Assembly: GCA_950054255.1 (NCBI GenBank) | Contig: CATLOR010000003.1 | Span: forward strand, 121,816-185,815 | Length of the DNA stretch: 64,000 nt | Source: an uncultured Rickettsiales bacterium | GTDB taxonomy: Bacteria > Pseudomonadota > Alphaproteobacteria > Micavibrionales > GCA-2720935 | Reading direction: 5' to 3' | Shown: positions 42,432-58,093 of the stretch, in pieces | How the letters are laid out: each line of letters begins with the position of its first letter | Position numbering within the stretch: the stretch's first letter is position 1 | The notes under the pieces: model-generated | What the model was told of the DNA's origin: nothing | The model's database searches: none | What the model saw: only the letters and a program-made list of their open reading frames with translations | Translations under genes and position numbers: made by a program

Positions 42432-42972
42432 CAGCGCCTCCATACGTAATGGTGGTCTTTGATTTGAAAAACCGGACGCCAGAACAATTCGTTTGAGAAA
42501 TATGCCGCGCCACGGCAGTGATATTCTTGAACTTGATATTCCTGTAAGAAAACCCACCGTTGATACATTCAATGATGTGATCCTCGCCTTTGTATCTTTT
42601 CGTGATGATCGTGCCATCTGGGAACTTTGTGTTTGAGCCTTGGGATGCCTTTTCCAAAGGATTGTTTGGTTCGCCCTTGGTATAATGATCCATTAATCGG
42701 CTGATTATGGCTTCTCGGTAAATATTGTGCGGACAGGACTTCTTAAAGATGTGCTTATATTCTGCGCGCAGCAAATCCACATCGCACAGACGCAGCCGCG
42801 CATATTGCCGTACCAGATACAAATCCAAGCTCTGCGGCTGGCTATCAGCCAGTAAATGCGATAAAAATTGCCATGTTTGATCTTCTTTCATAAAACTACC
42901 TCCTGAAGGCATACACGCTTCAGAACCGTTCTTTATCAAGTTGTTTTCTCTGTATTTCTTCTCTTTCGACAT
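42424..42972 (-). CDS. DUF2924-like protein, paralogue 1
   Basis: GTIITKRYKGEDHIIECINGGFSYRNIKFKNITAVARHISQTNCSGVRFFKSK, plus a shared LYL(V/I)(R/K)QYARLRL motif. The preferred start MSKEKK has an AGGAA RBS. Confidence 0.55.
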   Translation of the reverse strand: MSKEKKYRENNLIKNGSEACMPSGGSFMKEDQTWQFLSHLLADSQPQSLDLYLVRQYARLRLCDVDLLRAEYKHIFKKSCPHNIYREAIISRLMDHYTKGEPNNPLEKASQGSNTKFPDGTIITKRYKGEDHIIECINGGFSYRNIKFKNITAVARHISQTNCSGVRFFKSKTTITYGGADE

Positions 42973-43344
42973 TTCATAATTTCCTTTCGGTTTTGCCTGT
43001 ATTGAATAGGTCTGCAAACCTCTCCAAAAACGACGACGTAAATTGCAACTTTCTTGTCGTTATTTTTCTGGTACGGGGTTTGCTCGCAAAAAACCGATGG
43101 AATGTGAAAAAATTTGATTTTGTTTAAAATGAACCAGATTTAGGTAGTATTAGTCCCCTTAGAGCGACCAAAATAAACAGAAAGCGCCCCCGAAGAGGAC
43201 GCTTTTTGTATCTGACATTTAATTGGTTTGGCTGTTGTTCTAGTCTTCTGCCTTATTAAATGTATCTATGTATCTGATTATGTGTGTAAGCGATACCCCG
43301 AAACGAACTCTTGAACTATTGCCCTTCGCGAACAGAAATATGAC

Positions 43345-43710: not shown

Positions 43711-44328
43711 TTACTCATCGTCTGTTTTAAAATTATTGTACTCTTTTGTTGTGAGAGATCTTGTGGCGTTTCCATCCCTAATATAAAAATCGCCCCTCTG
43801 GTTTGTGAATACATGCTTTGCTGATTTCTCAATCTCAATTCTTAGGACTTCTTTATCATCCACCCGCTCAAACTTTATGCGGTACAGTCGATCAACTGCG
43901 CCATCTATATTGCTTCGGATTGCGCTCCTTAGGGCTAACTCAAACTTATCTTTGTTACGCTCACGTTTAATTAGGGTCTCTATTCCAACTACAGTGGAGT
44001 TATCGGCAACTCCCAATATAATTTCACCGCCGTCAGAGTTTGCAAAAGCGACAATGGTCTTAACCAGACCATCGTAAGGGGATTTTCTTTTGCTGTCCTC
44101 ACTAAGCGTTTCTTTAAATTCTAATCGGCCATGCTCCTTCTCGTTTAGAAGTTCTTGAATGTCACGCCATGGCTTTTCTCCTTTTGGGAATTGTTTGTCA
44201 CCGATTAAATAGCCAGCTCCAGCTGCTAGTAATGCCGGTACCCATCCACCTAAAGGCAGTGCTACCAATGCCAGCCCTGCCGATATGCTGCCGACTTTAA
44301 TTTTTCTATCCATATTACGTTGCTCCAT
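43711..44328 (-). CDS. Membrane-anchored AlbA_2 (Schlafen-like, divergent-AAA) domain protein
   Basis: N-terminal hydrophobic segments (GSISAGLALVALPLGGWVPALLAAGAGYLIG), then LEFKETLS..IVAFANSDGGEIILGV, which is typical of AlbA_2. Confidence 0.6.
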   Translation of the reverse strand: MEQRNMDRKIKVGSISAGLALVALPLGGWVPALLAAGAGYLIGDKQFPKGEKPWRDIQELLNEKEHGRLEFKETLSEDSKRKSPYDGLVKTIVAFANSDGGEIILGVADNSTVVGIETLIKRERNKDKFELALRSAIRSNIDGAVDRLYRIKFERVDDKEVLRIEIEKSAKHVFTNQRGDFYIRDGNATRSLTTKEYNNFKTDDE

Positions 44329-45802
44329 ATTTTCTTAGTACATCCAATAGTAAAACCATCGCATAAGTATCCTGCTTACAATATTCGATAAGGTTGTCCC
44401 ATAAGGCTGGTTGTTCAGTTTCTGGCAAGATTCCATTTATGAACGCATTGTATTGCAGCATAGCATCACCACCGTGAGATATTTCTAGATCATCATAGCT
44501 GAGATCAGTAAAAGCAGGTAATACGGCTTTAATCGATGCTGAGCTTTTTTGGTTTGGATTATAGAGCCAGCGTTTTCTAAATGGCTCGAGCAAATCAATT
44601 ACCCTAGAATTAATGGCGTTTAAGGCAGGTGCATATTCAGGAAAATCACTGGCCAGATCATTGTTGCGGGCAATCTCAAAAGACTGGTTATAAACTATGA
44701 CGTGACCGTCCACGCCACATAGCTCGATAAGTTTCTCAGCAAAAAGTCGGCGCGGGTCGGTCTGCTCTTTATGCAAATATTCATGATGCACCAATTCTGC
44801 GTCTGGACTTTCTTGTATATGAACGGAGAATTGAAACGGTATCTGTTGATATGGCCTCGTTCCATCAAAAAGAGGAATGGCTGGATTAATCGTCTCATAA
44901 TCCAAAAAATACAGCGGATATTGTAGATGGTCTAGAAAGCCTTTTACGTTGGCGCGATCAATGATGGTCTCCCCGCTTAAATAGCTTTCGACATCCAAAC
45001 TCTTTACACCGCCCGGGCGAATATGATCAGGTAGTTTTTCAATAGCTACACCGTGCTGACGCGACAGATCTTCGGCTTTCTTCTTTTGAAAGACATCATA
45101 CACAGAATAATCCGGTACATGCTTCCAGCAATGATCACGGTAATCACACTCAAACGGTGCGAAACACCGCGCACCGATTGATACGTCTGGCTCTTTTTTG
45201 CGCTCGAGAACATAGCCAAGCTGTCCAGCGACAGCCTCAACTTCAGCTTGCCTAGAAAAGACGTCACCAGATATATCTTCAAGTTTAAACAAAAGCTTTG
45301 GATCAATATCCCCAGCGCGGATATAGCTATTATCCAACACCATCATAAAGCACTTGCGGATTTTGTACCCAGCGCCGTTAAAGACATGATATTGAAACGC
45401 CATGTCATCGAGGTGATAATCTTTGACACTGGTAGAGCTTTTAACCTCGATCAAATCCCATTCATTACTCCCGCTGACGCGCTTTAAAATGTCAATGCGG
45501 GAATAGCCACCATCAATCGGGTGCATTGCTGTAGCTTCAAAAATAATATCATGACCGTCTTTGATAAATTGCTGTGTAGATTCAATCGCGCCTTTCACAT
45601 CCCAATAGGCATTTTTGACCTCAGCCCCACCGTCAAAATAGGACATAGCCAGCGCACCAATCTCATTCCCCGCATCAAACCGCGCTTGCGTCTGCGCATC
45701 AATCTCTGGGGCAAGGTCTTTACGATGGCGATACAACCACAAAGCCTTCGGGCATTGAAGACCCTTTACGTACTGAGATTTTGAGATTGTATGCTTATCC
45801 AT
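44315..45802 (-). CDS. DUF2779-like protein: Cas4/RecB-type nuclease with Cys cluster plus DnaQ-like exonuclease region
   Basis: N-terminal ISKSQYVKGLQCPKALWLY, a Cys triad CFAPFECDYRDHCW, then YFLDYETINPAIP (DxE) and CKQDTYAMV (late Asp). Confidence 0.55.
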   Translation of the reverse strand: MDKHTISKSQYVKGLQCPKALWLYRHRKDLAPEIDAQTQARFDAGNEIGALAMSYFDGGAEVKNAYWDVKGAIESTQQFIKDGHDIIFEATAMHPIDGGYSRIDILKRVSGSNEWDLIEVKSSTSVKDYHLDDMAFQYHVFNGAGYKIRKCFMMVLDNSYIRAGDIDPKLLFKLEDISGDVFSRQAEVEAVAGQLGYVLERKKEPDVSIGARCFAPFECDYRDHCWKHVPDYSVYDVFQKKKAEDLSRQHGVAIEKLPDHIRPGGVKSLDVESYLSGETIIDRANVKGFLDHLQYPLYFLDYETINPAIPLFDGTRPYQQIPFQFSVHIQESPDAELVHHEYLHKEQTDPRRLFAEKLIELCGVDGHVIVYNQSFEIARNNDLASDFPEYAPALNAINSRVIDLLEPFRKRWLYNPNQKSSASIKAVLPAFTDLSYDDLEISHGGDAMLQYNAFINGILPETEQPALWDNLIEYCKQDTYAMVLLLDVLRKYGAT

Positions 45803-45883: not shown

Positions 45884-46075
45884 ATGGATAACGACATAAT
45901 GACAATGAAAGAGGTCGCTGAGTACCTCAAATTAAATGAAAAGACAGCCTATCGTTTAACCTCAGACGGTAAGCTTCCAGCATTTAAAGTTGGCGGTAGC
46001 TGGCGTTTTCGTAAATCAGAGATTGACGAATGGACAAAAAAGCAAAGCAATATGCAGAACCAGCAGGATAAATAG
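45884..46075 (+). CDS. Excisionase/MerR-type helix-turn-helix DNA-binding protein
   Basis: 63 aa. MTMKEVAEYLKLNEKTAYRLTSDGKLPAFKVGGSWRFRKSEIDEW fits the HTH_17 pattern. Confidence 0.7.
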   Translation: MDNDIMTMKEVAEYLKLNEKTAYRLTSDGKLPAFKVGGSWRFRKSEIDEWTKKQSNMQNQQDK

Positions 46076-46078
46076 ACC

Positions 46079-48745
46079 ATGAGAATAGCGCAGATCGAAA
46101 AAAATCTTTCAGAACTGGTGAAAAGCATTTCACCAGATGAATTTGTTTACGATCTCTTGCTGGCTTACGGCACGCCAAAAACGACTGTCACGTTGCTTAA
46201 AAAGGGTAATCGAAACCTTTCCAAAAAAGACGGACAAATCATCCTTAAGCGCAAATTATTCTTTCAAGAAACACAAGAGCAAGATCTGCACGGTCTGATT
46301 GACAGCTTAAAAAATGATGATGCCACCCACCGCCATGACCCACGCTTTATTGTGGTAACGGATTATAAAACCTTACTAGCCATTGATACAAAAACGGATG
46401 ACACGCTCGATATAAAAGTTAACGAGATTAACAAACACCCGTTCTTTTTCGGGCCGTGGGCAAAAATTGAGAAAAACACCCATTACAACGAGCAAGAAGC
46501 CGATGTTAAAGCCGCCGAGAAGATGGCGAAGATCTATGATGAGATTTTAAAAGATAACGCATTTGAAACAAAAGAAGATCTACATGGCCTTAATATTTTC
46601 CTCTCGCGCCTGTTATTCTGTTTCTTTGCTGAAGATACAGGTATTTTTAGAGGCGAGAATGTTTTCACAAACTATGTCAGCACTTCTCAAGAAGACGGTA
46701 GCGATCTTGATGATTACTTGAACAAACTGTTCGAGGTCTTAAACACTGCCGATCATTCCGCTTATCCCGATTACCTCTCAAAATTCCCGTACGTAAATGG
46801 CGGATTATTTGGTGATCGATATTTCGCACCAAAATTCTCGCGTAAAGCACGCCGCATGATTATCGAATGTGGTGAGCTGGACTGGGCAACCATCAACCCT
46901 GATATTTTCGGGTCAATGTTCCAAGCTGTGGTTCATACAGACCAGCGCAGTAGCATGGGGCAGCATTACACCTCCGTACCGAATATCATGAAAGTGATTG
47001 AGCCACTTTTCCTAAACGAGCTGCGTGAAGAGTTTGATAAATATTACGAGAATCAGAAAAAACTGGAACAGCTTCTTGCTCGCCTTGAAAAACTCCGCAT
47101 CTTTGACCCGGCTTGTGGATCGGGTAATTTTCTAATTATTGCCTATAAGGAAATCCGCGAACTGGAGATGGAGATATTCCAGCGCATTCAGGAGGTAACA
47201 ACCAACCCATCACTGCCGTTCTCCCGTATTCAGCTTTCACAATTTTACGGGATTGAGCTGGATGATTTCGCGCATGAAGTTGCCATTCTTTCCTTGTGGC
47301 TAACCGAACACCAAATGAATGTGAAATTTGAGGAAGTCTTTGGTCAGACAAACCCAACGTTGCCATTGAAAGAAGGTGGAAACATCGTTTGTGACAACGC
47401 TACCCGCATTTCATGGGAAGACGTATGTCCAAAAGATAAAAATGCTGAAATTTATATCTTAGGCAATCCGCCTTACCAAGGAGCAAGAAGGCAAGATGAG
47501 CAGCAAAAGGCTGATTTGTCGCATGTGTTTTCAGAGTTTAAAACATACAAAAACCTTGATTATATATCCTGCTGGTTTTGGCTTGGTGCGGAGTACATTC
47601 AAGGAAATAACAGTAAAATCGGCTTAGTAAGTACCAACTCAATATGTCAGGGGGAACAGGTTTCTTTGTTGTGGCCTTTTATATTTAATAAAGAGGTTGA
47701 AATTGGGTTTTGTCACCAATCTTTTAAGTGGACAAATAACGCAAGAAACAACGCAGGAGTAACTTGCGTGATCGTTGGTTTGCAAAGCCAAAAAGAGAAA
47801 CTGAAGGAAATATATTCCGATGGTATTTGCAAAAAAGTTAAATCAATCAATGCTTACCTCACAGAAGGAAACCAGACTATTGTTGGAAGACGCAACAAGC
47901 CATTGTCTAGCAACCTAAATCATATGCCAAAAGGTAATATGCCGTACGATGGTGGGCATTTAATTTTAGATGAAACAGAAAAAAATGATCTAATATCCAA
48001 CTATCCTACTGCTAAAAAGTTTATAAAAAAGTTGGTTGGGGCAAAAGAATTTATACATTCATTAAAACGTTACTGTCTTTGGATTGAAGATAATTCTTTA
48101 AATGAAGCACTTGCAATAAGCCCCATAAAAGAACGTATTGAGAAAGTTAAAAAAATGCGTTTGGATAGTTCTGATACTGCTGCAAACAGATTGGCAGAAA
48201 GAGCGCATCAATTTAGAGAGATAAATCAGACAAAAACAAGCTCTATTGTAGTTCCATCTGCAACATCGGAGCGTAGAAAATATATCCCGATGGGCTTTGT
48301 GAATGATGATACTATCGTTAGTAATCTTGCCTTTGTTATTTATGATGCTGAACCGTATTTGTTTGGTATTCTTTCATCAAAAATTCACCTTGCGTGGGTT
48401 AAAAGCGTTTCAGGGCAGCTAGAAACTCGAATCAGATATTCGTCTGCCCTATGTTACAACACATTCCCTGTGCCAGATCTCACAGAAAAGCAAAAAGAAA
48501 CGATTACCACGCATGTTTACAATGTGCTGGAAGAGCGTGAAAAACATTCCGAAAAAACAATGGCGGAGCTGTATGACCCCGACAAAATGCCGGACGGGTT
48601 AAGAGAGGCACACCACCACCTCGACCTCGCCGTTGAGCGTTGCTATCGCTCAAAACCATTCACCAGCGATGAAGAACGCCTTGAATACCTTTTCAAACTC
48701 TACGAAGACATGACCGCCAAAGAAAAATCAGGAGGTCTGCTTTGA
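46079..48745 (+). CDS. MmeI-family (type IIL/IIG-like, YeeA-like) N6-adenine DNA methyltransferase
   Basis: 888 aa. SAM motif DPACGSGNF (47105-47131) and catalytic NPPY (47465-47476). LDYISCWFW..VSTNSICQGEQVSLLW is typical of MmeI/YeeA-like enzymes. N-terminal D95-x7-D103-T-K105 may be a PD-(D/E)XK motif. Confidence 0.8.
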   Translation: MRIAQIEKNLSELVKSISPDEFVYDLLLAYGTPKTTVTLLKKGNRNLSKKDGQIILKRKLFFQETQEQDLHGLIDSLKNDDATHRHDPRFIVVTDYKTLLAIDTKTDDTLDIKVNEINKHPFFFGPWAKIEKNTHYNEQEADVKAAEKMAKIYDEILKDNAFETKEDLHGLNIFLSRLLFCFFAEDTGIFRGENVFTNYVSTSQEDGSDLDDYLNKLFEVLNTADHSAYPDYLSKFPYVNGGLFGDRYFAPKFSRKARRMIIECGELDWATINPDIFGSMFQAVVHTDQRSSMGQHYTSVPNIMKVIEPLFLNELREEFDKYYENQKKLEQLLARLEKLRIFDPACGSGNFLIIAYKEIRELEMEIFQRIQEVTTNPSLPFSRIQLSQFYGIELDDFAHEVAILSLWLTEHQMNVKFEEVFGQTNPTLPLKEGGNIVCDNATRISWEDVCPKDKNAEIYILGNPPYQGARRQDEQQKADLSHVFSEFKTYKNLDYISCWFWLGAEYIQGNNSKIGLVSTNSICQGEQVSLLWPFIFNKEVEIGFCHQSFKWTNNARNNAGVTCVIVGLQSQKEKLKEIYSDGICKKVKSINAYLTEGNQTIVGRRNKPLSSNLNHMPKGNMPYDGGHLILDETEKNDLISNYPTAKKFIKKLVGAKEFIHSLKRYCLWIEDNSLNEALAISPIKERIEKVKKMRLDSSDTAANRLAERAHQFREINQTKTSSIVVPSATSERRKYIPMGFVNDDTIVSNLAFVIYDAEPYLFGILSSKIHLAWVKSVSGQLETRIRYSSALCYNTFPVPDLTEKQKETITTHVYNVLEEREKHSEKTMAELYDPDKMPDGLREAHHHLDLAVERCYRSKPFTSDEERLEYLFKLYEDMTAKEKSGGLL

Positions 48746-49773
48746 GTGACCTGCTTGATTTAACCGTTGATACAAAGTCTTTGCGAGTTAGTAATCGCGA
48801 AGGTGATCGAAGAGAGTTCAAAGCTCTATTCGACAACAATGCTCTCTGGAAGTACGCAAAAACTATGGTTTCATTCGCAAACAGGGATGGCGGGGTGATA
48901 TTTTTTGGCGTAAAGGATCGCCCCAGAGAATTGGTAGGATTAACGGGCAATAACCCCGATGAGCTTGTTTTTGCTCATTTTTTAAAAGAATATTTTGAAC
49001 CAGAGATACGCTTCACTCTCGATACGCTTAAAATAGCGGGAAAAGACCTTCTTTATGTTCTAATCGAGGCTTCTCCAAATAAACCAGTCATTTGTAAAAA
49101 ACGAAAAGTATCCAAAAATAAAGAATCTGGGAAAACGGATAAGGAGCTACTTCGCGAAGGCGCTATTTATTATCGTTATTCATCTTCAACAGAAGAAATT
49201 AAATATCCGGAGCTTACAAAAATTTTAGAGGAGAAAGTGCAGAAAGTCTTTCATTCTATGGTCGATAACATAACCCTTCTCAATAAAGTTGGCTATGATC
49301 GTGCCGCTGTTGTAGATGCCAGCGAGTTGAGTGGAAACGATAAAAGCACATCCGTCTATATAACAACAGAAACAGCAAAAAATATTAATTGGATTCAAAA
49401 AGGGCGTTTTTCTGAAACAGAAGACCAGTCAGAAAAAGCATATTATGTGACTCGTGAAATTGAAGTTAGGCATGGCGTTGAAATTTCCAACCCAGTGCCC
49501 ACAGACCCAGGTTTAACGCATACCCTTACACAGACAGCATTAAGACAAGCTATTTCTTTATCAGGAAATCATCTTGATGCAGTTTTATGGAAGTTGGGGC
49601 TGTTAAATAACCCGAAATATCATTTGTCTGGCCAGCATGGAAAAAACAAATGGCATAAATTCACTGAAGCTACAAAAGACAAAGTTTTAGAAGCCTACCC
49701 TTTAGACCTTACTGGTAGACTTAATAAGGTCAAAGATGTGGTGAATGAATATCTACAAAGCCAAAGGAAATAA
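48742..49773 (+). CDS. AlbA_2 (Schlafen-like) domain protein
   Basis: TTG start preceded by AGGAGG, with a 4-nt overlap with the MTase stop. REFKALFDNNALWKYAKTMVSFANRDGGVIFFGVKD is the AlbA_2 pattern. Confidence 0.6.
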   Translation: MSDLLDLTVDTKSLRVSNREGDRREFKALFDNNALWKYAKTMVSFANRDGGVIFFGVKDRPRELVGLTGNNPDELVFAHFLKEYFEPEIRFTLDTLKIAGKDLLYVLIEASPNKPVICKKRKVSKNKESGKTDKELLREGAIYYRYSSSTEEIKYPELTKILEEKVQKVFHSMVDNITLLNKVGYDRAAVVDASELSGNDKSTSVYITTETAKNINWIQKGRFSETEDQSEKAYYVTREIEVRHGVEISNPVPTDPGLTHTLTQTALRQAISLSGNHLDAVLWKLGLLNNPKYHLSGQHGKNKWHKFTEATKDKVLEAYPLDLTGRLNKVKDVVNEYLQSQRK

Positions 49774-49784
49774 AGGAATAAATA

Positions 49785-51704
49785 ATGCCAAATATAGTAG
49801 ACGTCACATATGCCCAAACAGGGGAAAGCACCAAAACCAACTCAATGGGTATGCGTGAAATGCAAGAGCGTGCTTACTCTGCACGTGACGCTCAATATCT
49901 TCTTCTGAAAGCACCTCCTGCTTCAGGTAAATCTCGTGCGTTGATGTTTATTGCCTTGGATAAGCTGATTAACCAAGGCTTGAAAAAAGTGATTGTGGCC
50001 GTCCCTGAAAAATCTATCGGTGGTTCATTTGGAAATACTGATCTTAAAGAATACGGCTTCTATGCAAACTGGGAACCTAATGAGAAATACAACCTCTGCA
50101 CTCCGGGAGGCGATAAAAGCAAAGTGGATGCCTTTATGCGCTTTATGGAAGGTGACGAAAAAATTCTAATTTGTACGCATGCAACATTACGCTTTGCCTT
50201 TGAGCAGATCGATGAGAGCAAGTTTGATAATTGCCTACTTGCGATTGATGAATTTCACCATGTATCCGCAGATAAAGAAAACAGTCGCTTGGGTGGATTG
50301 CTACATTCGATAATGACTAAATCCAGCGCTCACGTGGTAGCGATGACAGGTTCATATTTCCGTGGCGATGGCGTTCCAGTACTTACACCAGAAGACGAAA
50401 AGAAATTTATACCAGTTACCTATAATTACTATGAGCAGTTGAATGGCTATACGCACCTGAAATCCTTGGGGATTGGATATCACTTTTATCAAGGTCGCTA
50501 CACTACAGCAATTGCCGAGGTTCTAGATACTGATAAAAAAACAATTCTACATATTCCCAGCGTGAATTCAGGTGAGTCAACAAAAGAGAAATATGACGAA
50601 GTTGACACAGTATTAGGCATTCTTGGCGAGGTTGATTATCAGGATGCTGAAACAGGTATTATATACCTAAAACGTCATACAGATGGGAAAACACTAAAAA
50701 TTGCAAACTTGGTAGAGGAATATCAAAGAGATCGCGTGCAGGAATACCTGCGTAATATTAAATCAGCTGATGATATTGATTTAATTATCGCTCTTGGCAT
50801 GGCAAAGGAAGGCTTTGACTGGCCGTATTGTGAGCATGCCTTAACGGTCGGTTACAGAGGGTCTTTGACTGAGGTTATTCAAATTATAGGGCGTTGTACG
50901 CGTGATAGCGATAACAAAACCCACGCGCAATTTACTAATCTGATTGCGCAACCCGATGCGGAAGATGGCTTAGTTACATTATCCGTTAATAATATGCTCA
51001 AGGCCATTACATGCTCACTTCTGATGGAGCAAGTGTTAGCACCTAATTTCAAATTCAAAACAAAGCTCTCAGATGACGATGAAGCAAAACCCGGAGAATT
51101 CAAAATTCGTGGTTTCAAAGAGCCTTCATCGAAAAGAGTAAAAGAGATTGTTGAATCTGATTTAAATGATCTAAAGGCAAGAATTCTTCAGGATGATAAA
51201 ATGATTAAGGCGCTGCCGGGTAATGTTGATCCAGAAGTGATTAACAAGGTGATGATTCCGAAGATTATCAAGATCAAATATCCAGAGCTATCAGATGCAG
51301 AAGTGGAAGAAGTACGCCAACATGTGGTCGTTGATTCCGTCATCAAGAATGGAGAAATCAAGGAAACTGGTGATAAACGCTTTATTCGGATGGCAGGTAA
51401 ATTTGTCAATATTGATGACCTGCACGTCGATCTGATTGATAGCGTTAATCCGTTCCAAGCCGCCTTTGAAATCCTATCTAAATCTGTAACAGCACAGGTC
51501 TTCCGAGTAATTCAGGAGGCAATTGAAGCCACCCGTATTCAAATGACGGATGAAGAAGCCATGCTGCTATGGCCAAAGATTAAGAGCTTTGTTCAAAACA
51601 ATAATGGTCAGCAACCAAATATCAATGCCGTTGACCCATTGGAACAACGATTAGCTGAGGCTCTGATATATATTCAAAACCAGCGCAGACAACAAAATTT
51701 ATAA
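49785..51704 (+). CDS. SF2 DExH-box helicase (YeeB-like / type III res-like)
   Basis: Motif I APPASGKSRA, motif II DEFHH, motif III MTGS, and motif VI QIIGRCTRD. Confidence 0.8.
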   Translation: MPNIVDVTYAQTGESTKTNSMGMREMQERAYSARDAQYLLLKAPPASGKSRALMFIALDKLINQGLKKVIVAVPEKSIGGSFGNTDLKEYGFYANWEPNEKYNLCTPGGDKSKVDAFMRFMEGDEKILICTHATLRFAFEQIDESKFDNCLLAIDEFHHVSADKENSRLGGLLHSIMTKSSAHVVAMTGSYFRGDGVPVLTPEDEKKFIPVTYNYYEQLNGYTHLKSLGIGYHFYQGRYTTAIAEVLDTDKKTILHIPSVNSGESTKEKYDEVDTVLGILGEVDYQDAETGIIYLKRHTDGKTLKIANLVEEYQRDRVQEYLRNIKSADDIDLIIALGMAKEGFDWPYCEHALTVGYRGSLTEVIQIIGRCTRDSDNKTHAQFTNLIAQPDAEDGLVTLSVNNMLKAITCSLLMEQVLAPNFKFKTKLSDDDEAKPGEFKIRGFKEPSSKRVKEIVESDLNDLKARILQDDKMIKALPGNVDPEVINKVMIPKIIKIKYPELSDAEVEEVRQHVVVDSVIKNGEIKETGDKRFIRMAGKFVNIDDLHVDLIDSVNPFQAAFEILSKSVTAQVFRVIQEAIEATRIQMTDEEAMLLWPKIKSFVQNNNGQQPNINAVDPLEQRLAEALIYIQNQRRQQNL

Positions 51705-51715
51705 GGTGTGATTGA

Positions 51716-52870
51716 GTGGATAAGGACGATTTATTAAAACTGATAAACGATGATGATTTAGGGCTATTAAATGTTAAGCCTAAGCAATCTGCTATTGTCA
51801 CTGCAGATGAGCGCCTTATTGCATCCTTTACTCAAATCAATCAGTTTGTTGCAGACAATGGACGAGAACCTGAAAGTGGTAAAGGCATTCAGGAACACCA
51901 ACTCTATGCTCGTCTTAACGGTATTCGTGAGAGTGCTGAGAAGATGGAAGCGCTTGCAAGCCTTGATGGACATGGCTTACTCAATGTCCAACGCACAGAA
52001 ATAAGCTCTATTGAAGATATTTTTGACGATGATGATTTGGGTATTTTGGGTAACGAAGCGGAGAGCATCTTTACGCTGAAGCACATCTCAAAAGAAACAA
52101 CGATGCCTGATTATGTTGCCAGTCGTAAGCCGTGTAAAGATTTTGAAATATTCGAGGCTAAATTCACTCAATGCCAGGCAGACCTGACAGCTGGAAAAAG
52201 AAAGCTATGGCCGTTTAAGAACGAACAACAAATCCAAAAGGGTTATTTCTTTGTTCTTAAAGGTGTTCTACTTTATGTGGCTGATGTTGGTGAAGTTGAG
52301 AAAAGTAACGGTAAAAAGAATGCTAGGTTACGCTGTATTTTTGAGAATGGAACAGAATCCGACATGTTGTTACGTTCATTGGCAGCCGAGCTTTATAAGG
52401 ATGGCCGTCGCGTAACTGAGCACGAAGATCAGTTGCTGGATGGCTTTAGCAATATTAACGAAGAAGACGAAGCAACAGGTTATATCTACGTCTTGCGCTC
52501 GTTAAGCACAAAGACTGATATTCAGGAACTTAACAACCTCTATAAAATTGGTTTCTCAACTGTTCCTGTAGAACAACGCATTAAGAATGCGGAAAACGAA
52601 CCAACATATTTAATGGCACCGGTTCATATTGTGGAGGCTTACCAGTGCTACAATATGAACCCACAAAAATTGGAACAGTTGCTTCACACATTCTTTGGGT
52701 CATCCTGTTTGAATATTGATATTTTCGATGGTAATGGCCAACGCCACACACCTCGTGAATGGTTCATTGCACCATTAGATATAATTGAACAAACGATACA
52801 TTTCGTGCTGAACGGCGACATTGTGAATTATCGTTATGATTCAGATAAACAAGAAATTGTGGGGAGGTAA
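51716..52870 (+). CDS. T5orf172 / GIY-YIG-superfamily (Mug113-like) protein, YeeC-like
   Basis: GTG start. The C-terminal half reads GYIYVLRS..LYKIGFSTVPVEQRIKN..EQLLHTFF..REWFIAPLDIIEQTI, which is the T5orf172 pattern. Confidence 0.65.
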   Translation: MDKDDLLKLINDDDLGLLNVKPKQSAIVTADERLIASFTQINQFVADNGREPESGKGIQEHQLYARLNGIRESAEKMEALASLDGHGLLNVQRTEISSIEDIFDDDDLGILGNEAESIFTLKHISKETTMPDYVASRKPCKDFEIFEAKFTQCQADLTAGKRKLWPFKNEQQIQKGYFFVLKGVLLYVADVGEVEKSNGKKNARLRCIFENGTESDMLLRSLAAELYKDGRRVTEHEDQLLDGFSNINEEDEATGYIYVLRSLSTKTDIQELNNLYKIGFSTVPVEQRIKNAENEPTYLMAPVHIVEAYQCYNMNPQKLEQLLHTFFGSSCLNIDIFDGNGQRHTPREWFIAPLDIIEQTIHFVLNGDIVNYRYDSDKQEIVGR

Positions 52871-52873
52871 AGA

Positions 52874-54256
52874 ATGCTTGATCAATCCTTCTCTGCTGAA
52901 AATTTCCGTAAAATTTTTGACTACGAAAACAGGAAAGGTAATTATCTTGCCGGGAGTTTCTTTCCAGACGCGAATGAAAAATCAAGAAAAATCAAACGAT
53001 GTAATGATGAGTTAAAGGAGCTCAAGAAACCCTCTGATGAAGATAAAGTTGATGCATATACTCAAAAGAAACAGGAGTTGGTTGAAAAGAAGACAAATTT
53101 AGAGCAGGAAAAAGAACAAATACTCGAAGATGCTTTTAAGAAGGTTAGCGATACAGCAACTCAAAAAAACTTTTCTTTAGATCTCGAAGATAGAGATATC
53201 AACGGCAAGAAAGTTTATGTTGCAGCGAATTCATCTGGAGACTATTCGGGGCTCGCTAAAGAGAAACGACTAAATTTAGCAGCCCAATTTTTTGCATTAA
53301 AACAGACACAGAAAAATATCAGTAAATTATATAAAGTTAAGCAAGCGGATCGTTATAATATAGTTTGCCAATTGAGAGAGGCTCTAAGAGGTCGTTTTCC
53401 TAAATATATTATTAGAACCGATATTTCGAGCTTTTATGAGAGCATTCCAAGGGTTGAATTAATAAAAAAAATCAATGAGGACAATCTTCTAACTTATAAT
53501 TCTAAGAAAACAATAAAACAGATCCTATATAAATATGGAACACTCCCTGGGGGGAGTTTCAAGGGCATCCCAAGAGGTGTTGGAATAAGCGCGTACCTCT
53601 CAGAATTACACATGCGCGAATTGGATGAAGAGATGCGAAACGCACCAAATGTTTTATATTACGCAAGGTATGTCGACGACATAATAATCATATACACTAA
53701 CGCCAACCCTAGCGTGAAATCATTGCGAGCATTCTGTAGAAACATTATTGAAAAGGGGCTGAAAAGAAACCGTCAAAAAACCTCTCTTATAAAGGCGAAT
53801 GGAAGTACACCGCACACCATTGATTATCTAGGCTATAGTTTTAGATTCGGCACCGGTGACGTTAAAGTAAACATAACAAAATCCAAAGTTGATCGGTATA
53901 AAAGTAAGATTGATCTATCTTTTTATGATTATGAAAAAAAATTAAAATATAATGAGAAAAAAGCTCGACGACTGCTAATAAAGCGAATTAAGTTTCTAAC
54001 TGGAAATACACGCTTAATTGGCAATAAGAAAAATATTCGAGTGGGGATATACTTTTCTAATAAGATTCTCACCGATCATTCTTATTTAAAGGGGATGGAC
54101 TGTTATCTAACTCACAAAGTATCTTCATTGCAAAATGAGCGAGCAAAAAACAGACTTAGTAAGCTGTCCTTTCAAAAAGGGTTCGTCGAGAAAACCTTTT
54201 ATAAATTTTCAAAGGCAGATTTAGAAAACATTATGGAGGCTTGGAAATATGCCTAA
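52874..54256 (+). CDS. Reverse transcriptase 1 (UG3/Drt3a-like, tentative class)
   Basis: 460 aa. RT motifs DISSFYESI, GIPRGVGISAYLSELHM, YARYVDDIIIIY (YVDD at 53669-53680), RNRQKTS and IDYLGYSF. There is an N-terminal charged coiled-coil and a GGGAGG RBS. Confidence 0.8.
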   Translation: MLDQSFSAENFRKIFDYENRKGNYLAGSFFPDANEKSRKIKRCNDELKELKKPSDEDKVDAYTQKKQELVEKKTNLEQEKEQILEDAFKKVSDTATQKNFSLDLEDRDINGKKVYVAANSSGDYSGLAKEKRLNLAAQFFALKQTQKNISKLYKVKQADRYNIVCQLREALRGRFPKYIIRTDISSFYESIPRVELIKKINEDNLLTYNSKKTIKQILYKYGTLPGGSFKGIPRGVGISAYLSELHMRELDEEMRNAPNVLYYARYVDDIIIIYTNANPSVKSLRAFCRNIIEKGLKRNRQKTSLIKANGSTPHTIDYLGYSFRFGTGDVKVNITKSKVDRYKSKIDLSFYDYEKKLKYNEKKARRLLIKRIKFLTGNTRLIGNKKNIRVGIYFSNKILTDHSYLKGMDCYLTHKVSSLQNERAKNRLSKLSFQKGFVEKTFYKFSKADLENIMEAWKYA

Positions 54257-56375
54257 GCGTCTTAAAATCAGATATAAAAAAGAGCGTGCCATCTTAGCGG
54301 ATGTCTTACCTTATGAAACCCCAGTGACTTTTACGAATCGTCATGTTTATGACTTTATAGAAAAGTTTAAGGTTACCATTAGTGATGACACGCTATCATG
54401 GAAGTCAAATAACAATGATGCATTAGATAAAATCATTCATATCTTATTTGCATTGCCAGAGAACCCAAGTCGTCTGTCCACCCAAAATGGCGGCATTAAG
54501 TCTTATGATTTCAATAACGGTGGCCAACCTAGGCCAGAGTACCCATTAATACCATTTGGCTATAAAATAAGTCACAAGCAAAAGGAGTTTCGTGAACTCA
54601 ATGTTCCTCATACCCGTAGTCAGCTACTCGTAGCCAACTTTTATGAACAGTATAAAGAAAGCATTATCTATTATTGTTCGCAAAGCTCTTTTTCAATACG
54701 CGCACCTCGAAAAATAGCCACACATAAGTTCTACAAGGACAATTTGCACAAATCAAAATTATCTGATGATGCTTCAATCATTGAAGAAAATGATAAGGAG
54801 TACAAGAACCAGAAATCTTTCTTTTCATACAAAGACTACAGCAATATCCATAAATTCTATGAGTCTCCACGATACCACCGTTGCGAGAAAAAATATAACA
54901 AACTCCTGAAGCTAGATATCTCCAAATGCTTTGATAGCATCTACACACATTCAATTGCATGGGCTCTTCTCGGAAAGCAAGAGGTCAAAGAAAACCTTAA
55001 AACCGTGGATAATACTTTTGCAGGCCAATTTGATAGGTTAATGCAGAATATTAACTATGGGGAAACGAATGGCATCATAATAGGTCCAGAACTATCCAGA
55101 ATCTTTGCTGAGATTATTTTGCAGGCTGCAGACAAAAAGGTCGAATTTCTTCTGAAAACAGAGCATGGCCTTAAAAACAAAGTAGATTTCGAGATGCTTC
55201 GTTATGTGGATGATTATTTTATCTTTTACAATGAGGAAGATGATAAAAGTACAATTGTAGAAACCGCCCAGCATGTTCTTAAAGAGTATAAGTTACACCT
55301 TAATTCGGCCAAAGAAGTTGAATATGAGAAGCCTCTCATAACAGAAATGTCTATCGCCAAAGAACGAATATCCAAACTCTTAGAAAACGAACTAAAATAT
55401 AGATTAGAGACAGTAGAGGAGGAAAGCGACGAAGGGCCTATTGAATACGAAAAGGGCAGCATCTACGTTAACAGCAAGAAGCTAATTATAGACTTCAAGA
55501 CTATTATCAAGGAGTGCCAGGTCGAATACAAAGATATGCTTAATTACTCCTTTTCAATTATTGAAAGGAAGTGTCATCAAATCATCAATGATTTCACAAA
55601 AGCCCACCCAGATCATCGATCAGAAGAAGGTTTTATAAAAGCGATCGTTGCCCTTCTGCAGTTTATATTTTTTATTTATTCAGTATCCCCAAGGGTCAAT
55701 ACCACAATAAAGCTTTGTATAATCTTAAAGACATTCCTGTCCTATTTGAAGGGCTCAAAATTCTGTCCTGAGAAAAATACACAAACTTCTAATATCAAGA
55801 ATTCTGAGAACAAGCACAGAGTTTTTAAATGCATCTACGACAATATTACTCTTGTTATGAAGAAGAATAAATGTAGCGATGCAACGCAAGTTGAAACTTT
55901 ATATTTGTTGATTGCACTGGCAGAGTTAGGAAAAGAATATTGGTTGGATGAAGATATTTTAGCGGAATACTTTGGTATAGAGGACTTGGAGAGTGAAAAT
56001 CCAAGAAAGAATAGCTGCCTAAATTATTTCTCCTTAACGGTACTTTTATATTATATGAGAGAAAAAGCCAAATACCGTAATTTGCGGAATTTAGTTGAAA
56101 AAATGGTGATTGAAAAGTTTCAGTGTGATGAAAAGATTCGAAGAAAGAGCTCCGAGCATACGATGTTGTTTTTTGATATGCTTTCGTGCCCTTTTATAAA
56201 AACTGAGACTAAGAAAAAAATTCTGCAGGCATATAATATAAACGATGCAAATCTGCAGAATGACCTGATTAATTTTCAAGTGGCTAACACTCCCAAACAA
56301 TTATGGTTCACAACTTGGGAAGGCTTCAATTTTAGTAAAGAGCTTGACGCAAAGCGTAGCCAAGAAGTATATTAA
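54249..56375 (+). CDS. Reverse transcriptase 2 (UG8/Drt3b-like, tentative class) with long C-terminal extension
   Basis: 708 aa. RT motifs LDISKCFDSIYTHSI, GIIIGPELSRIFAEI, LRYVDDYFIFY (YVDD at 55203-55214) and LNSAKE. Overlaps RT1 by 8 nt (ATGCCTAA). Confidence 0.8.
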   Translation: MPKRLKIRYKKERAILADVLPYETPVTFTNRHVYDFIEKFKVTISDDTLSWKSNNNDALDKIIHILFALPENPSRLSTQNGGIKSYDFNNGGQPRPEYPLIPFGYKISHKQKEFRELNVPHTRSQLLVANFYEQYKESIIYYCSQSSFSIRAPRKIATHKFYKDNLHKSKLSDDASIIEENDKEYKNQKSFFSYKDYSNIHKFYESPRYHRCEKKYNKLLKLDISKCFDSIYTHSIAWALLGKQEVKENLKTVDNTFAGQFDRLMQNINYGETNGIIIGPELSRIFAEIILQAADKKVEFLLKTEHGLKNKVDFEMLRYVDDYFIFYNEEDDKSTIVETAQHVLKEYKLHLNSAKEVEYEKPLITEMSIAKERISKLLENELKYRLETVEEESDEGPIEYEKGSIYVNSKKLIIDFKTIIKECQVEYKDMLNYSFSIIERKCHQIINDFTKAHPDHRSEEGFIKAIVALLQFIFFIYSVSPRVNTTIKLCIILKTFLSYLKGSKFCPEKNTQTSNIKNSENKHRVFKCIYDNITLVMKKNKCSDATQVETLYLLIALAELGKEYWLDEDILAEYFGIEDLESENPRKNSCLNYFSLTVLLYYMREKAKYRNLRNLVEKMVIEKFQCDEKIRRKSSEHTMLFFDMLSCPFIKTETKKKILQAYNINDANLQNDLINFQVANTPKQLWFTTWEGFNFSKELDAKRSQEVY

Positions 56376-56470
56376 ATATGCGCTTCACTCAAATTATTAA
56401 CACACACATGCGCACGTTAGTCTTTCTGAAAAAGTTAGTATAACATTGGCACCACTGGAGAGTGGTGCCT
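56376..56470 (+). ncRNA. Candidate RT-associated structured non-coding RNA (hypothesis)
   Basis: The non-coding tail directly after RT2 has a TGCGC (56379-56383)/GCGCA (56410-56414) stem. This stem encloses a loop with ACACACACA (56400-56408). A perfect 9-bp hairpin follows at 56448-56469. There are no expression data. Confidence 0.3.
56448..56469. terminator. GC-rich hairpin GGCACCACT-GGAG-AGTGGTGCC between the convergent RT2 and lysozyme genes
   Basis: Perfect 9-bp inverted repeat read in the sequence. No adjacent U-run on the plus strand, so it may be structural rather than an intrinsic terminator. Confidence 0.45.
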
Positions 56471-56523
56471 AAATGTTTCCGATCTTCTTCTCTATTTTTT
56501 AAGGCATAATCTAAAAATACTAC

Positions 56524-56958
56524 TTATAAAGTGTAAACCTTAGTCTCTGCCTCCCTGCGCCTTACAAGCCCTCTTAACTTACGGCCACCAGCCCAGACCC
56601 AGCGCATAAGCTGAGCCGGAACATTCTGGTGGTTCTTACGATTAATGACGCGGCGTAGGGTTGAGCGTTGTAGTGCGCCTGATCCTAAATTGTAGGTAAA
56701 TGACACCAGTGCATCAAACTGCCCGTCCGTTAATGGCACTGTAATTAAGCGCAGGACGGCACGTTCTGCTATTTGAGCATCTAAGCGCAGTAACTCTTCA
56801 GCCTCACCTTGAGTGATCCCGCCAGAGAAATCCTCACCCTTTTTAACGACGTGGCCGTAGCCGATTGTTGGGTATCCTGCAGGGCAAAAATAAACGGTTG
56901 GAGAGAAGCCCTCGAACCGTTTGATTAAATCTATACCTTCTTGTGTAATATGACGCAT
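56524..56958 (-). CDS. Phage endolysin, GH24 lysozyme
   Basis: 144 aa. LIKRFEGFSPTVYFCPAGYPTIGYGH contains the catalytic Glu and the T4/lambda-R-like motif. Confidence 0.85.
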   Translation of the reverse strand: MRHITQEGIDLIKRFEGFSPTVYFCPAGYPTIGYGHVVKKGEDFSGGITQGEAEELLRLDAQIAERAVLRLITVPLTDGQFDALVSFTYNLGSGALQRSTLRRVINRKNHQNVPAQLMRWVWAGGRKLRGLVRRREAETKVYTL

Positions 56959-56976
56959 ATTAGCCTCCGTTAAATA

Positions 56977-57267
56977 TTAATGTTTCTCCAGCGTTGCAAT
57001 GACCGTTAGTTTTTTATCGCCGCTCGTAAATACGCCCCAAAATTGCTCTTGGTCTAAGACCATTTTGCGGTCAATTTTCAGCTTAAATTTATCGACCTTA
57101 TATTTTAGGGCTAAGGGGAAGTCGGCCAGATCATAAAATGCTGTTCTGGCCAATCCAACTTGCTTCACCACCGCTTGATAATGATCCAGCAAACATTCAA
57201 TTTCACGATCCGAACATTGATCGCTCGTCATGTCCTCAATCATGGCTTTGTAGTAAATTTTTGACAT
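56977..57267 (-). CDS. Hypothetical phage protein
   Basis: 96-aa ORF between the holin and the endolysin. No family recognised. Confidence 0.3.
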   Translation of the reverse strand: MSKIYYKAMIEDMTSDQCSDREIECLLDHYQAVVKQVGLARTAFYDLADFPLALKYKVDKFKLKIDRKMVLDQEQFWGVFTSGDKKLTVIATLEKH

Positions 57268-57340
57268 TGTTCATCCTTTCTTTTGTTCTATCAGTAACGC
57301 TTCGTTTCGGAACTTAATCAACTGAATAAGATGTTATTAT

Positions 57341-57799
57341 TCAGCTATTTGAACGAAACTTTGAAAGCGCTCTCTGACCAAACCAAAACGACATAACCGC
57401 AGCAAAAAGAGCCTGTGTTTCAATATCCCAAATGGCAATTAAGCTGTCGGTGATGGGTGCGCCACTATCGAGTAGATTGAGCAATGCTGATATTTTGACG
57501 GTCGCAAATAAAGCGAAGAATGCGTATGTCAAAATCGGGCGGACAGATGCTCTTAAGGCTTCAACCCAGCGCACACCACTAGGCTGGCTTGCGTGTTTGT
57601 AAAGAGCTTGGCTTTCTGAAATATCAGCCTGCACATGGATTTCTTCCGAGCGTTGATTATGCCCTTGCTTTTGTGCCTCCATCTGCCGATCAAGAATGGC
57701 AAGCTCATGTTTTTTGTCGCTGCGATCCTGCCAAATATTCAGAAAGTCTGGGAACGCAGATGAAATAAAGCCGATCAGGCTTCCAAGTAATGTAAGCAT
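57341..57799 (-). CDS. Putative 3-TM holin (GTA_holin_3TM/DUF3154-like)
   Basis: 152 aa. One N-terminal TM, a charged central region, two C-terminal TMs and an ending FGQRALSKF. It lies just upstream of the endolysin. Confidence 0.5.
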   Translation of the reverse strand: MLTLLGSLIGFISSAFPDFLNIWQDRSDKKHELAILDRQMEAQKQGHNQRSEEIHVQADISESQALYKHASQPSGVRWVEALRASVRPILTYAFFALFATVKISALLNLLDSGAPITDSLIAIWDIETQALFAAVMSFWFGQRALSKFRSNS

Positions 57800-57832
57800 A
57801 GTATTTTCTCCTTTTTGAGTTGTTGAAATTGA

Positions 57833-58093
57833 TTATTTAGGGGTACGTAAAAATTTGAGATCGTCGCGGATATCAATGATCTGCACTTTTATGGCGGCAA
57901 GATCTTCGCGCATTTCACCGACAACTTTGCGTCCCGTGATATCGTTATTGACGAGGGTTTCGACGGTGTTTAGACGAGCATTTAAAATGGCTAGGCGTGA
58001 GCTGATCCATGAGGTCAGCTTTACGAGCGCAACAAGTATGGCCAAACTGTGAGCGATAATGCCCACAGCCAAGCCCCATTCTGCAGGGGTCAT
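57833..58093 (-). CDS. Small membrane protein with coiled-coil (lysis-cassette accessory?)
   Basis: 86 aa. One TM (GLAVGIIAHSLAILVALV), then a helical region. Confidence 0.3.
   Translation of the reverse strand: MTPAEWGLAVGIIAHSLAILVALVKLTSWISSRLAILNARLNTVETLVNNDITGRKVVGEMREDLAAIKVQIIDIRDDLKFLRTPK

Follow-up and report, generated by a model that had tools for sequence, protein, structure and literature searches.

The locus described here raises two questions: to what kind of system do two reverse transcriptase (RT) genes belong that lie side by side on the forward strand of a 64,000-nucleotide stretch of contig CATLOR010000003.1 (the whole of which we call the window), and is the pair all that the system contains? 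We conclude, with a probability of roughly 0.87, that the window carries a complete but divergent defence-associated reverse transcriptase type 3 (DRT3) system consisting of drt3a, drt3b and, encoded in cis, one non-coding RNA (ncRNA). Our analysis identifies all three components and shows that the catalytic, priming and nucleotide-selecting residues, the template and the RNA helices are conserved; what DNA the system makes, what triggers it and that it defends against phages are predictions from E. coli. DRT3 itself is already known (the E. coli system, Drt3a/UG3 plus Drt3b/UG8, was reportedly described by Gao and colleagues in 2020), and the NCBI annotation pipeline would name both genes correctly. 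What appears to go beyond the literature is the variant ncRNA, a promoter signal embedded in drt3b, and a linkage to a restriction-modification-like cassette and to DUF2779, all of which we offer as leads. The features of the gene pair are as follows.

52874..54256, + strand: drt3a (UG3-type, class 2 RT; open reading frame (ORF) 1), 460 residues; ORF call, NCBIfam, PADLOC, PDB
54249..56375, + strand: drt3b (UG8-type, class 1 RT; ORF2), 708 residues; ORF call, NCBIfam, PADLOC, PDB
54249..54256, + strand: drt3a/drt3b overlap ATGCCTAA, 8 nucleotides; direct sequence reading
54233-54237, + strand: GGAGG Shine-Dalgarno sequence, 11 nucleotides upstream of the drt3b start; sequence
53669..53680, + strand: Drt3a catalytic YVDD, Y266 V267 D268 D269 (..ARYVDDIII..); translation
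53420-53422, + strand: Drt3a motif-A aspartate D183; translation
55203..55214, + strand: Drt3b catalytic YVDD, Y319 to D322 (..LRYVDDYFI..); translation

The family assignment rests on curated models and on solved structures. An initial annotation of this DNA, made from the letters and a list of ORFs, had proposed the UG3 plus UG8 architecture of DRT3 and had called for a check with UG3 and UG8 models; the curated Drt3a and Drt3b models are both passed at full length, and NCBIfam, PADLOC, the PDB entries 9z6y and 26cz and a downstream ACACAC-containing ncRNA all agree with DRT3. The first protein matches the NCBIfam equivalog model NF041747 (Drt3a) with 368.5 bits against a cut-off of 200 (residues 1-457 on profile positions 1-412), and the second matches NF041748 (Drt3b) with 752.3 bits against a cut-off of 350 (residues 13-708). 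PADLOC assigns the first to Drt3a (E 4.7e-116, 387 bits; runner-up RT_UG17, 110 bits) and the second to Drt3b (E 2.1e-203, 676 bits; runner-up Drt6, 157 bits). Three DRT3 entries, 9z6y, 9z6z (Drt3a + Drt3b) and 26cz, are the best solved relatives in the PDB: that of the first protein is 9z6y_A, Drt3a (E 2.9e-29), and those of the second are 26cz_A (E 1.8e-78) and 9z6y_H, named 'Drt3b reverse transcriptase protein' (E 2.7e-71). A database search returned 2936 relatives at E<=1e-10, several of them named by NCBI 'antiviral reverse transcriptase Drt3b' at 49-55% identity; because the relatives are so numerous and many carry the Drt3b name, the pair sits inside a well-populated Drt3 clade and the divergent or new UG/Abi subgroup held in reserve by the initial annotation is not needed.

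That the two proteins are RTs of another class (group II intron, retron, diversity-generating retroelement, CRISPR-associated, or a single-gene system of the AbiK/AbiP2/DRT4 type) is so improbable as to be negligible: there are weak NCBIfam cross-matches, as expected for any RT (group II intron model TIGR04416, 68 and 53 bits; retron St85, 50 bits; Drt4, 113 bits), and the PADLOC AbiK, AbiP2 and Drt6 models match the RT core of Drt3b, but the NCBIfam scores fall far below the curated cut-offs of 300, 235 and 450 bits, and the ORF list places no cas genes adjacent to the pair. Rfam gave no intron match and no retron RNA family match in 52000-57500, and the proteins have 460 and 708 residues against about 300-350 for a retron RT. 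No template/variable repeat pair of a diversity-generating retroelement was found, the repeats of at least 25 nucleotides in 51000-58000 amounting to one chance 25-nucleotide pair. The PADLOC scores of the second protein for Drt6 (157 bits), AbiP2 (125), Drt4 (123) and AbiK (89) compare with 676 bits for Drt3b, and the NCBIfam Drt2, Drt4 and Drt5 models score far below their cut-offs in a scan of both proteins. Group II intron, retron, diversity-generating retroelement and CRISPR classes, together with loss of catalytic residues, were the findings that the initial annotation had said would speak against it; we examined each and found none of them.

The two ORFs, their overlap and the two intact YVDD motifs lie exactly where the initial annotation had put them. 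The junction reads ...aaa tAT GCC TAA gcg..., with the ATG of ORF2 contained within the final codons of ORF1, and hence the overlap of eight nucleotides. Start and stop most often overlap by 4, 8 or 11 nucleotides, three arrangements that together account for 44 of the 78 listed relatives, and drt3a lies directly upstream of drt3b on the same strand, usually overlapping it, in 82/85 relatives. With 63.7 and 49.2 bits, the two proteins clear the Pfam RVT_1 cut-off of 29.6. Residues D183, V267, D268 and D269 of Drt3a and those of its motif B are at least 95% conserved across 74 relatives, and in Drt3b the motif-A residues D223 and F228 lie upstream of the YVDD. The polymerase active sites of both RTs are intact; in E. 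coli DRT3, defence needs both.3 The N-terminal extension of about 170 residues that the initial annotation remarked upon in the first RT is not peculiar to it, as all 74 aligned Drt3a relatives have residues 1-140, and their identity to the window over residues 1-20 averages 76%; only a stretch of about 14 residues (121-135) is inserted, and a minority of relatives share it (gap fraction 0.71).

The E. coli system supplies the functional frame (Wang et al. 2026; PMC13174585, reference 3 above and below). DRT3a makes poly(dT-dG) from a looped 5'-ACACAC-3' motif of an ncRNA whose gene lies downstream of drt3b. DRT3b, a hexamer, uses Y666 as its primer and alternates dC and dA without a nucleic-acid template by means of E22 and R241, with R71; its C-terminal part comprises an alpha-solenoid oligomerisation domain and a C-terminal tail with the priming tyrosine.3 The HMMER alignment to 26cz, which carries a 108-residue tag and whose offset we checked on D182, F187 and R241, equates E. 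coli E22, R71, D182, F187 and R241 with E23, R115, D223, F228 and R284 of the window protein. The positions of the selecting and priming residues are listed below.

54315..54317, + strand: E23 codon (EcoDRT3b E22, dATP gate); alignment to 26cz
54591..54593, + strand: R115 codon (EcoDRT3b R71, which stacks on the incoming base); alignment to 26cz
55098..55100, + strand: R284 codon (EcoDRT3b R241, dC recognition and alternation switch); alignment to 26cz
56370..56372, + strand: Y708 codon, the last residue (priming tyrosine Y666 of EcoDRT3b); C-terminal tail alignment

E23, R115, D223, F228, R284, Y319, D321 and D322 are conserved in all 78 of 78 Drt3b proteins from related loci, and the terminal Y708 in 77 of them; an alignment of 21 database homologues shows no variation in these residues, in the YVDD or in the terminal ...DAKRSQEVY. 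By alignment, the window has every Drt3b residue for which work in E. coli has shown a part in priming or 'templating' poly(dC-dA). The C-terminal extension, which the initial annotation left unassigned, is in fact some 350 residues homologous along their length to solved Drt3b chains (in the PDB search, residues 100-707 align to 68-649 of 9z6y_H). We suggest that Drt3a is an RNA-templated polymerase copying the ncRNA template, and that Drt3b, which consists of an RT-like domain, an alpha-repeat domain and a C-terminal tail, is a poly(dC-dA) polymerase for which protein serves as both primer and 'template'; a hexameric Drt3a:Drt3b:ncRNA assembly is likewise predicted for the window by homology to the solved chains.

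The third component, at 56375-56476, is absent from the initial annotation. The gap of 148 nucleotides between drt3b and a convergent phage lysozyme gene contains ...UUAACACACACAUGCGC..., and its features are as follows.

56375..56476, + strand: DRT3 ncRNA, about 100 nucleotides, short form without the template-adjacent hairpin; covariance model R1
56379..56414, + strand: P1 stem, UGCGC (56379-56383) with GCGCA (56410-56414), closing a 26-nucleotide loop; fold
56400..56407, + strand: template ACACACAC, (AC)4, unpaired in the P1 loop; fold, sole occurrence in the window
56416..56444, + strand: P3 hairpin, weak in the window, with internal loops; fold
56448..56469, + strand: P4 hairpin GGCACCACU-GGAG-AGUGGUGCC (56448-56456 with 56461-56469), then a U-rich tract; fold

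The UG3-UG8-ncRNA architecture was noted earlier by Mestre et al. (2022; PMC9226505), who described an exposed motif resembling 'CACACA', whose distance from the RT varies, and RNA structures that are group-specific. Reference genomes supplied 80 Drt3b loci at 39-55% identity, among them loci of Alpha- and Gammaproteobacteria, Bacteroidota and Acidobacteriota. Nearly all of these have ACACAC 31-57 nucleotides past the end of drt3b, and the motif is invariant in the family alignment. Anchored on this motif, the family shows one architecture, in which the P1 strands flank a loop ending in the template, a variable P3 follows, and a terminal P4 precedes a run of U's; most loci have in addition a P2 hairpin directly 5' of the template. 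RNAalifold applied to a MAFFT alignment of 48 loci, from which the window was excluded, recovered P1 and P4 only, with compensatory changes; P2 and P3 were placed by eye and then checked by pair counts, and with them added 83.6% of cells pair in that alignment against 38.6-50% for slid partners. The covariance model built on the 48 loci, R1, has a single match on both strands of the 64-kb window, at 56375-56476 on the + strand (39.1 bits, E 1.1e-6, model positions 1-120/120), and also detects 69 related loci. In the structure-aware alignment of 70 ncRNAs, the paired fractions are 94.6% for P1, 99.1% for P2, 73.8% for P3 and 97.1% for P4; all five pairs of P1 have changes on both sides, and over the four-helix model as a whole the paired fraction reaches 88.9% and the covariation score 0.651, whereas slid controls score no higher than 0.223. 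Folded in isolation, the window RNA (56378-56472) adopts three helices, P1, P3 and P4, at -29.5 kcal/mol (z -3.68, 62% of the ensemble). A fold of the whole intergenic region (56370-56530) gave a misleading long-range structure, whereas the three-helix form emerged when folding was confined to the RNA within the bounds set by the covariance model. We also considered a 21-residue ORF at 56378-56443 as a peptide gene and rejected it, since neither its start nor its frame is conserved in relatives. An Rfam scan of 52000-57500 at E<=10 returned chance eukaryotic small nucleolar RNA and microRNA matches only; Rfam has no DRT3 ncRNA family.

P4 with its U-rich tract is probably also a terminator. 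It is extremely unlikely, in our view, that the element after drt3b is a mere transcription terminator or 3' untranslated region. A GC-rich hairpin followed by a U-rich tract between convergent genes is what a terminator would look like, but this leaves unexplained both an invariant ACACAC held in the loop of a covarying stem across phyla and the single significant match of the structure model in the window, and mutation of ACACAC abolishes defence in E. coli.3

Could the system be a decaying or inactive remnant, its RT genes intact and its minimal ncRNA no longer supporting synthesis by Drt3a? The low ncRNA score of 39 bits, the missing P2 and the weak P3 would fit such a state. Against it, both ORFs are full length and keep every key residue, and about one in four members of the family has no P2 (15-19 gaps of 70). 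The closest relatives come from metagenome contigs. Their Drt3b proteins are 80-85% identical in L083-L085 and 64% identical in L086; L083-L085 share the short-form ncRNA, with compensatory changes in P4 (CACCAC/GUGGUG to CACUGC/GCGGUG in L083), and in L086 the P1 and P4 sequences differ yet still pair, with the UGGAG loop kept. Because the short form and its compensatory changes are kept in the closest relatives, we take the ncRNA to be under selection and not decaying. The exact Drt3b protein also recurs on many ENA metagenome contigs (49 index blocks) with its neighbourhood unchanged. We therefore consider decay very unlikely.

Some further features of these RNAs deserve mention. GUUAGU occurs twice as a direct repeat in the P3 region of the window (56416-56440, cGUUAGUcuuucugaaaaaGUUAGUa) and is conserved in L083-L085. 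The Drt3b loci of Schmidhempelia and Gilliamella (L047, L049) have no ACACAC within 300 nucleotides downstream of drt3b; they have CUCACACAUCAGCGC about 80 nucleotides after the stop, a possible shorter template variant. At the annotated DRT3 locus of E. coli E24377A (L088, 5907-6110), ACACAC lies about 150 nucleotides after the drt3b stop, behind a TTGACA promoter-like site and in a different scaffold, and its Drt3b has D at the position of Eco-E22. This locus illustrates subgroup-specific ncRNAs, in agreement with Mestre et al.

The end of drt3b holds a second signal, read from a consensus scan.

56344..56373, + strand: ncRNA promoter-like site, -35 TTGACG (56344-56349), 18-nucleotide spacer, -10 TATATT (56368-56373); consensus scan, 10/12 matches

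The -10 box is formed by the Val-Tyr-stop codons of drt3b and the -35 box by Leu-Asp codons. Across 71 loci drt3b ends in G-T-[A in 57]-T-A-[T/C]-T-[A/G]-[A/G], which yields TATAYT ending on the first base of the stop codon; TNGACG stands 18 nucleotides upstream of this hexamer (TTGACG in the window). The Val codon is GTA in 52/64 genes, against 25.8% of the other Val codons of those genes, and in loci with a G+C content above 0.5 it is GTA in 19/19 genes, against 17.9% elsewhere; the binomial p for the bias is about 2e-20, a value that is overstated because the sequences are related. The first base of P1 follows the hexamer by 7-8 nucleotides in 40/64 loci. The site resembles a sigma-70 promoter that would serve the ncRNA and be embedded in the priming-tail codons; alternatively, what is constrained may be the RNA itself or the termination of translation.

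The mechanism that we suggest for the window system follows by homology from the E. coli work, from which its steps (DNA products, trigger and abortive outcome) can be extrapolated with good confidence. The ncRNA (about 56379-56470) would either be transcribed from a promoter of its own or arise by processing of the operon transcript, and would bind Drt3a, which would copy the unpaired ACACAC template repeatedly into poly(dT-dG). Drt3b would prime DNA on the hydroxyl of its C-terminal tyrosine Y708 and, using no nucleic-acid template, would alternate dC and dA as selected by E23, R115 and R284 to give poly(dC-dA). The two products would then form double-stranded DNA. In the uninfected cell, a host exonuclease acting on double-stranded DNA ends would keep the product low (RecBCD in E. 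coli, presumably AddAB or RecBCD here), and a phage that inhibits this end nuclease would let the DNA accumulate, arresting the cell and aborting the infection. In E. coli, the strands do form double-stranded DNA, the system is lethal without RecBCD, and lambda Gam triggers abortive infection through it.3 A review that cites Deng et al. 2026 describes a 6:6:6 Drt3a:Drt3b:ncRNA complex and constitutive kilobase-scale poly(GT/AC) (PMC13314766). Close relatives of the window system adjoin unrelated genes, which argues that DRT3 with its ncRNA is self-sufficient.

The window system can be compared with several known ones. The window shares with E. coli DRT3 the order of overlapping a-then-b genes, both YVDD motifs, the C-terminal priming Tyr, the E/R/R selecting residues, the unpaired ACACAC in an ncRNA downstream of drt3b, and the location in a mobile element or defence island. 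It differs in about 43 extra Drt3b residues between positions 43 and 99, in a longer Drt3a (460 residues versus 412-426), in an ncRNA that begins about 4 nucleotides after the stop codon and is a three-helix short form, and in its host, a marine alphaproteobacterium. With the proteobacterial and Bacteroidota Drt3b clade (Thalassospira, Roseobacter, SAR92, Asticcacaulis), it shares a full-length Drt3b of 45-55% identity, the ...DAKRSQEVY tail, and the ncRNA family in which P1 closes the template loop and P3 and P4 follow; most members of that clade, however, carry P2 immediately 5' of the template, which the window does not, and have a P4 loop GGGACGRG where the window type has UGGAG.

Drt3a resembles DRT10/UG17 and DRT9/UG28 in being a class 2 UG RT of the kind that reiteratively copies a short template in an ncRNA loop (into tandem-repeat or poly-dA DNA), by analogy with telomerase, and RT_UG17 is the second-best PADLOC match of the window protein. 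DRT10 and DRT9 are, however, single-RT systems (with a SLATT effector in DRT10) that have no second, template-free polymerase and no double-stranded product. Drt3b shares with the hexameric class 1 UG/Abi enzymes AbiK, DRT4 and DRT6 the fold, the order of RT-like and alpha-repeat domains and tyrosine priming, and in the PDB it cross-matches AbiK (7r06/7z0z) and UG15 chains; those enzymes make random or untemplated single-stranded DNA and act alone, whereas Drt3b makes a defined alternating dinucleotide and needs Drt3a and the ncRNA for defence.

Several observations weigh against reading the window as a DRT3 system that works as in E. coli. Identity to the annotated E. coli DRT3 (E24377A) is only 31% for Drt3b and 30% for Drt3a. 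The window ncRNA stands near the bottom of its family, at 39 bits against 55-105 for most members, and has next to its template no P2, a hairpin present in about three-quarters of relatives, so that control of the template boundary may differ. Model R1 finds nothing at the E24377A locus and so covers one subgroup only. The locus of the experimentally studied EcoDRT3 (PDB 26cz type) was not found by tblastn of plasmids and phages, and for this reason equivalence to the published ncRNA is drawn from position, from ACACAC in a loop and from the group-specific structures of Mestre et al. There is no promoter-like site, by the consensus scan, in the 3 nucleotides between the preceding gene and the start of drt3a or just upstream, so expression may depend on the upstream operon. 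Finally, the host is an alphaproteobacterium. Many alphaproteobacteria use AddAB rather than RecBCD, and the trigger may therefore differ.

Does DRT3 act on its own, or is it part of something larger? The neighbourhood bears on this question, and its principal features are as follows.

45884..52870, + strand: context block of HTH_17, MmeI-family type IIG restriction-modification enzyme, SLFN/AlbA_2, DEAD/ResIII helicase and T5orf172 (MUG113) genes; ORFs, Pfam, PADLOC
44315..45802, - strand: DUF2779 protein (context; possible accessory gene), with a weak Cas4-model match in its N-terminal half and an RNase_H_2 fold; Pfam, PADLOC

The DRT3 genes belong to a defence island, which occupies one end of a prophage-like element; the host is an uncultured marine alphaproteobacterium. 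Positions 1-41700 of the window are chromosome (polynucleotide phosphorylase (PNPase), a type I secretion system with an RTX protein, a two-component system); the PNPase is 69-72% identical to named matches from Alphaproteobacteria, Rhodospirillales or Rhodospirillaceae, and the exact protein occurs in marine metagenome assemblies. The mobile element starts at about 41800 with two DUF2924 genes, an AlbA_2 gene and the DUF2779 gene on the - strand, and continues with the packed block on the + strand. Downstream of DRT3 lie convergent phage lysis and tail genes (lysozyme, GpJ-like, NlpC/P60, tape measure). The window DRT3 DNA has no blastn match among 50,697 phage genomes, and the isolate phage collection contains no true Drt3b, the best match being 28% identical; in viral contigs DRT3 is rare but present, with 15 IMG/VR loci, two of them at about 40% identity.

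Between 45884 and 56375, seven genes follow one another on a single strand, no gap or overlap exceeds 11 nucleotides, and the last context gene ends 3 nucleotides before drt3a. This run, with no promoter-like site just upstream of drt3a, favours a reading in which DRT3 is not autonomous and forms the 3' half of an operon of HTH, MmeI-type enzyme, (AlbA_2), helicase, T5orf172, Drt3a and Drt3b, with the Cas4-like DUF2779 nuclease nearby. Restriction would then act first and DRT3 would be a backup for phages that block end-processing nucleases, and DUF2779 could control or use the poly(GT/AC); such an arrangement is compatible with our main explanation of the RT chemistry. The order helicase, T5orf172, drt3a, drt3b (window 49785-56375) recurs in 8/85 other DRT3 loci, which come from Alpha- and Gammaproteobacteria and Bacteroidota and are dispersed over the Drt3b tree; in L154, L155 and L156 the closely spaced run begins at the MmeI-type gene. 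DUF2779 homologues adjoin DRT3 in 16/85 loci, compared with 0/50 viral loci that have the cassette only. Much speaks for autonomy, however. About 90% of DRT3 loci, including the closest relatives of the window (L083-L087), are without the cassette; 47/50 viral cassette loci carry T5orf172 without DRT3; E. coli DRT3 defends as two genes plus ncRNA;3 defence islands routinely juxtapose unrelated systems; and related loci are not independent samples. We found no published link of DRT3 (UG3/UG8) to DUF2779, T5orf172 or MmeI in papers that mention DUF2779 or in the main text of Mestre et al. (PMC9226505). We judge a non-autonomous DRT3 unlikely, though it is the most probable of the alternatives. 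The associations of cassette and DUF2779 with DRT3 are suggestive, the counts being raw and uncorrected for phylogeny or for the background of defence islands. A single ancestral composite island as the source of the linkage was considered and is doubtful, as the composite loci are scattered and the divergences of cassette and DRT3 do not track each other.

The linkage itself can be described more closely. PADLOC recognises only the MmeI-type gene of the cassette (window 46079-52870), and the SLFN/AlbA_2 gene (48742-49773), between the MmeI-type gene and the helicase, is extra in the window. Among 50 IMG/VR viral contigs with the helicase (L089-L138), T5orf172 is just downstream of it in 47 and the MmeI-type gene just upstream in 40; none of the 50 carries DRT3. 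The helicase/T5orf172 pair is directly upstream of DRT3, on its strand, in L006, L007, L008, L016, L021, L036, L070, L076 and L154-L156, and the composite loci fall at no fewer than five separate places in a neighbour-joining tree of Drt3b. L154 (Parvibaculaceae) and L155 and L156 (Spongiibacteraceae) have abutting or overlapping genes all the way from the MmeI-type enzyme to drt3b, with overlaps of 8-11 nucleotides at the last three junctions, and in L155 and L156 the HTH_17 gene and the DUF2779/RNase_H_2 gene are positioned as in the window. The DUF2779 homologues flanking DRT3 (among L003-L082) mostly lie 30-70 nucleotides after the ncRNA on the same strand.

Two further observations concern the mobile element. 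At its boundary with the chromosome are two tandem, divergent DUF2924 paralogues (41844-43017, - strand). DUF2924 usually accompanies a large serine recombinase; the window has no recombinase gene, and L085 has both DUF2924 and a recombinase near its DRT3. In the prophage tail region, a 553-residue protein (61797-63458, - strand) has RCC1/WD40_RLD beta-propeller repeats, which are unusual for a tail fibre or receptor-binding protein.

A further-reaching reading would make DRT3 the distal part of a conserved operon in several lineages, the window included, with DUF2779 limiting or processing the poly(GT/AC); if this held, the system would encode its own nuclease for the controlling role that RecBCD plays in E. 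coli. Separately, the ncRNA of this subgroup may be transcribed from the -10 box in the codons of the priming tyrosine. We hold these readings to be improbable. The embedded promoter and the linkages to MmeI/helicase/T5orf172 and to DUF2779 are testable leads, not established findings. DRT3 pairs a polymerase that copies an RNA template with a second one in which amino-acid side chains stand in for the template, and the system has been studied only in E. coli variants. The window provides a complete, divergent natural variant with a minimal three-helix ncRNA, useful for comparing what the ncRNA scaffold requires and how the template boundary is set, and for asking if control by a host end-processing nuclease holds outside RecBCD hosts.

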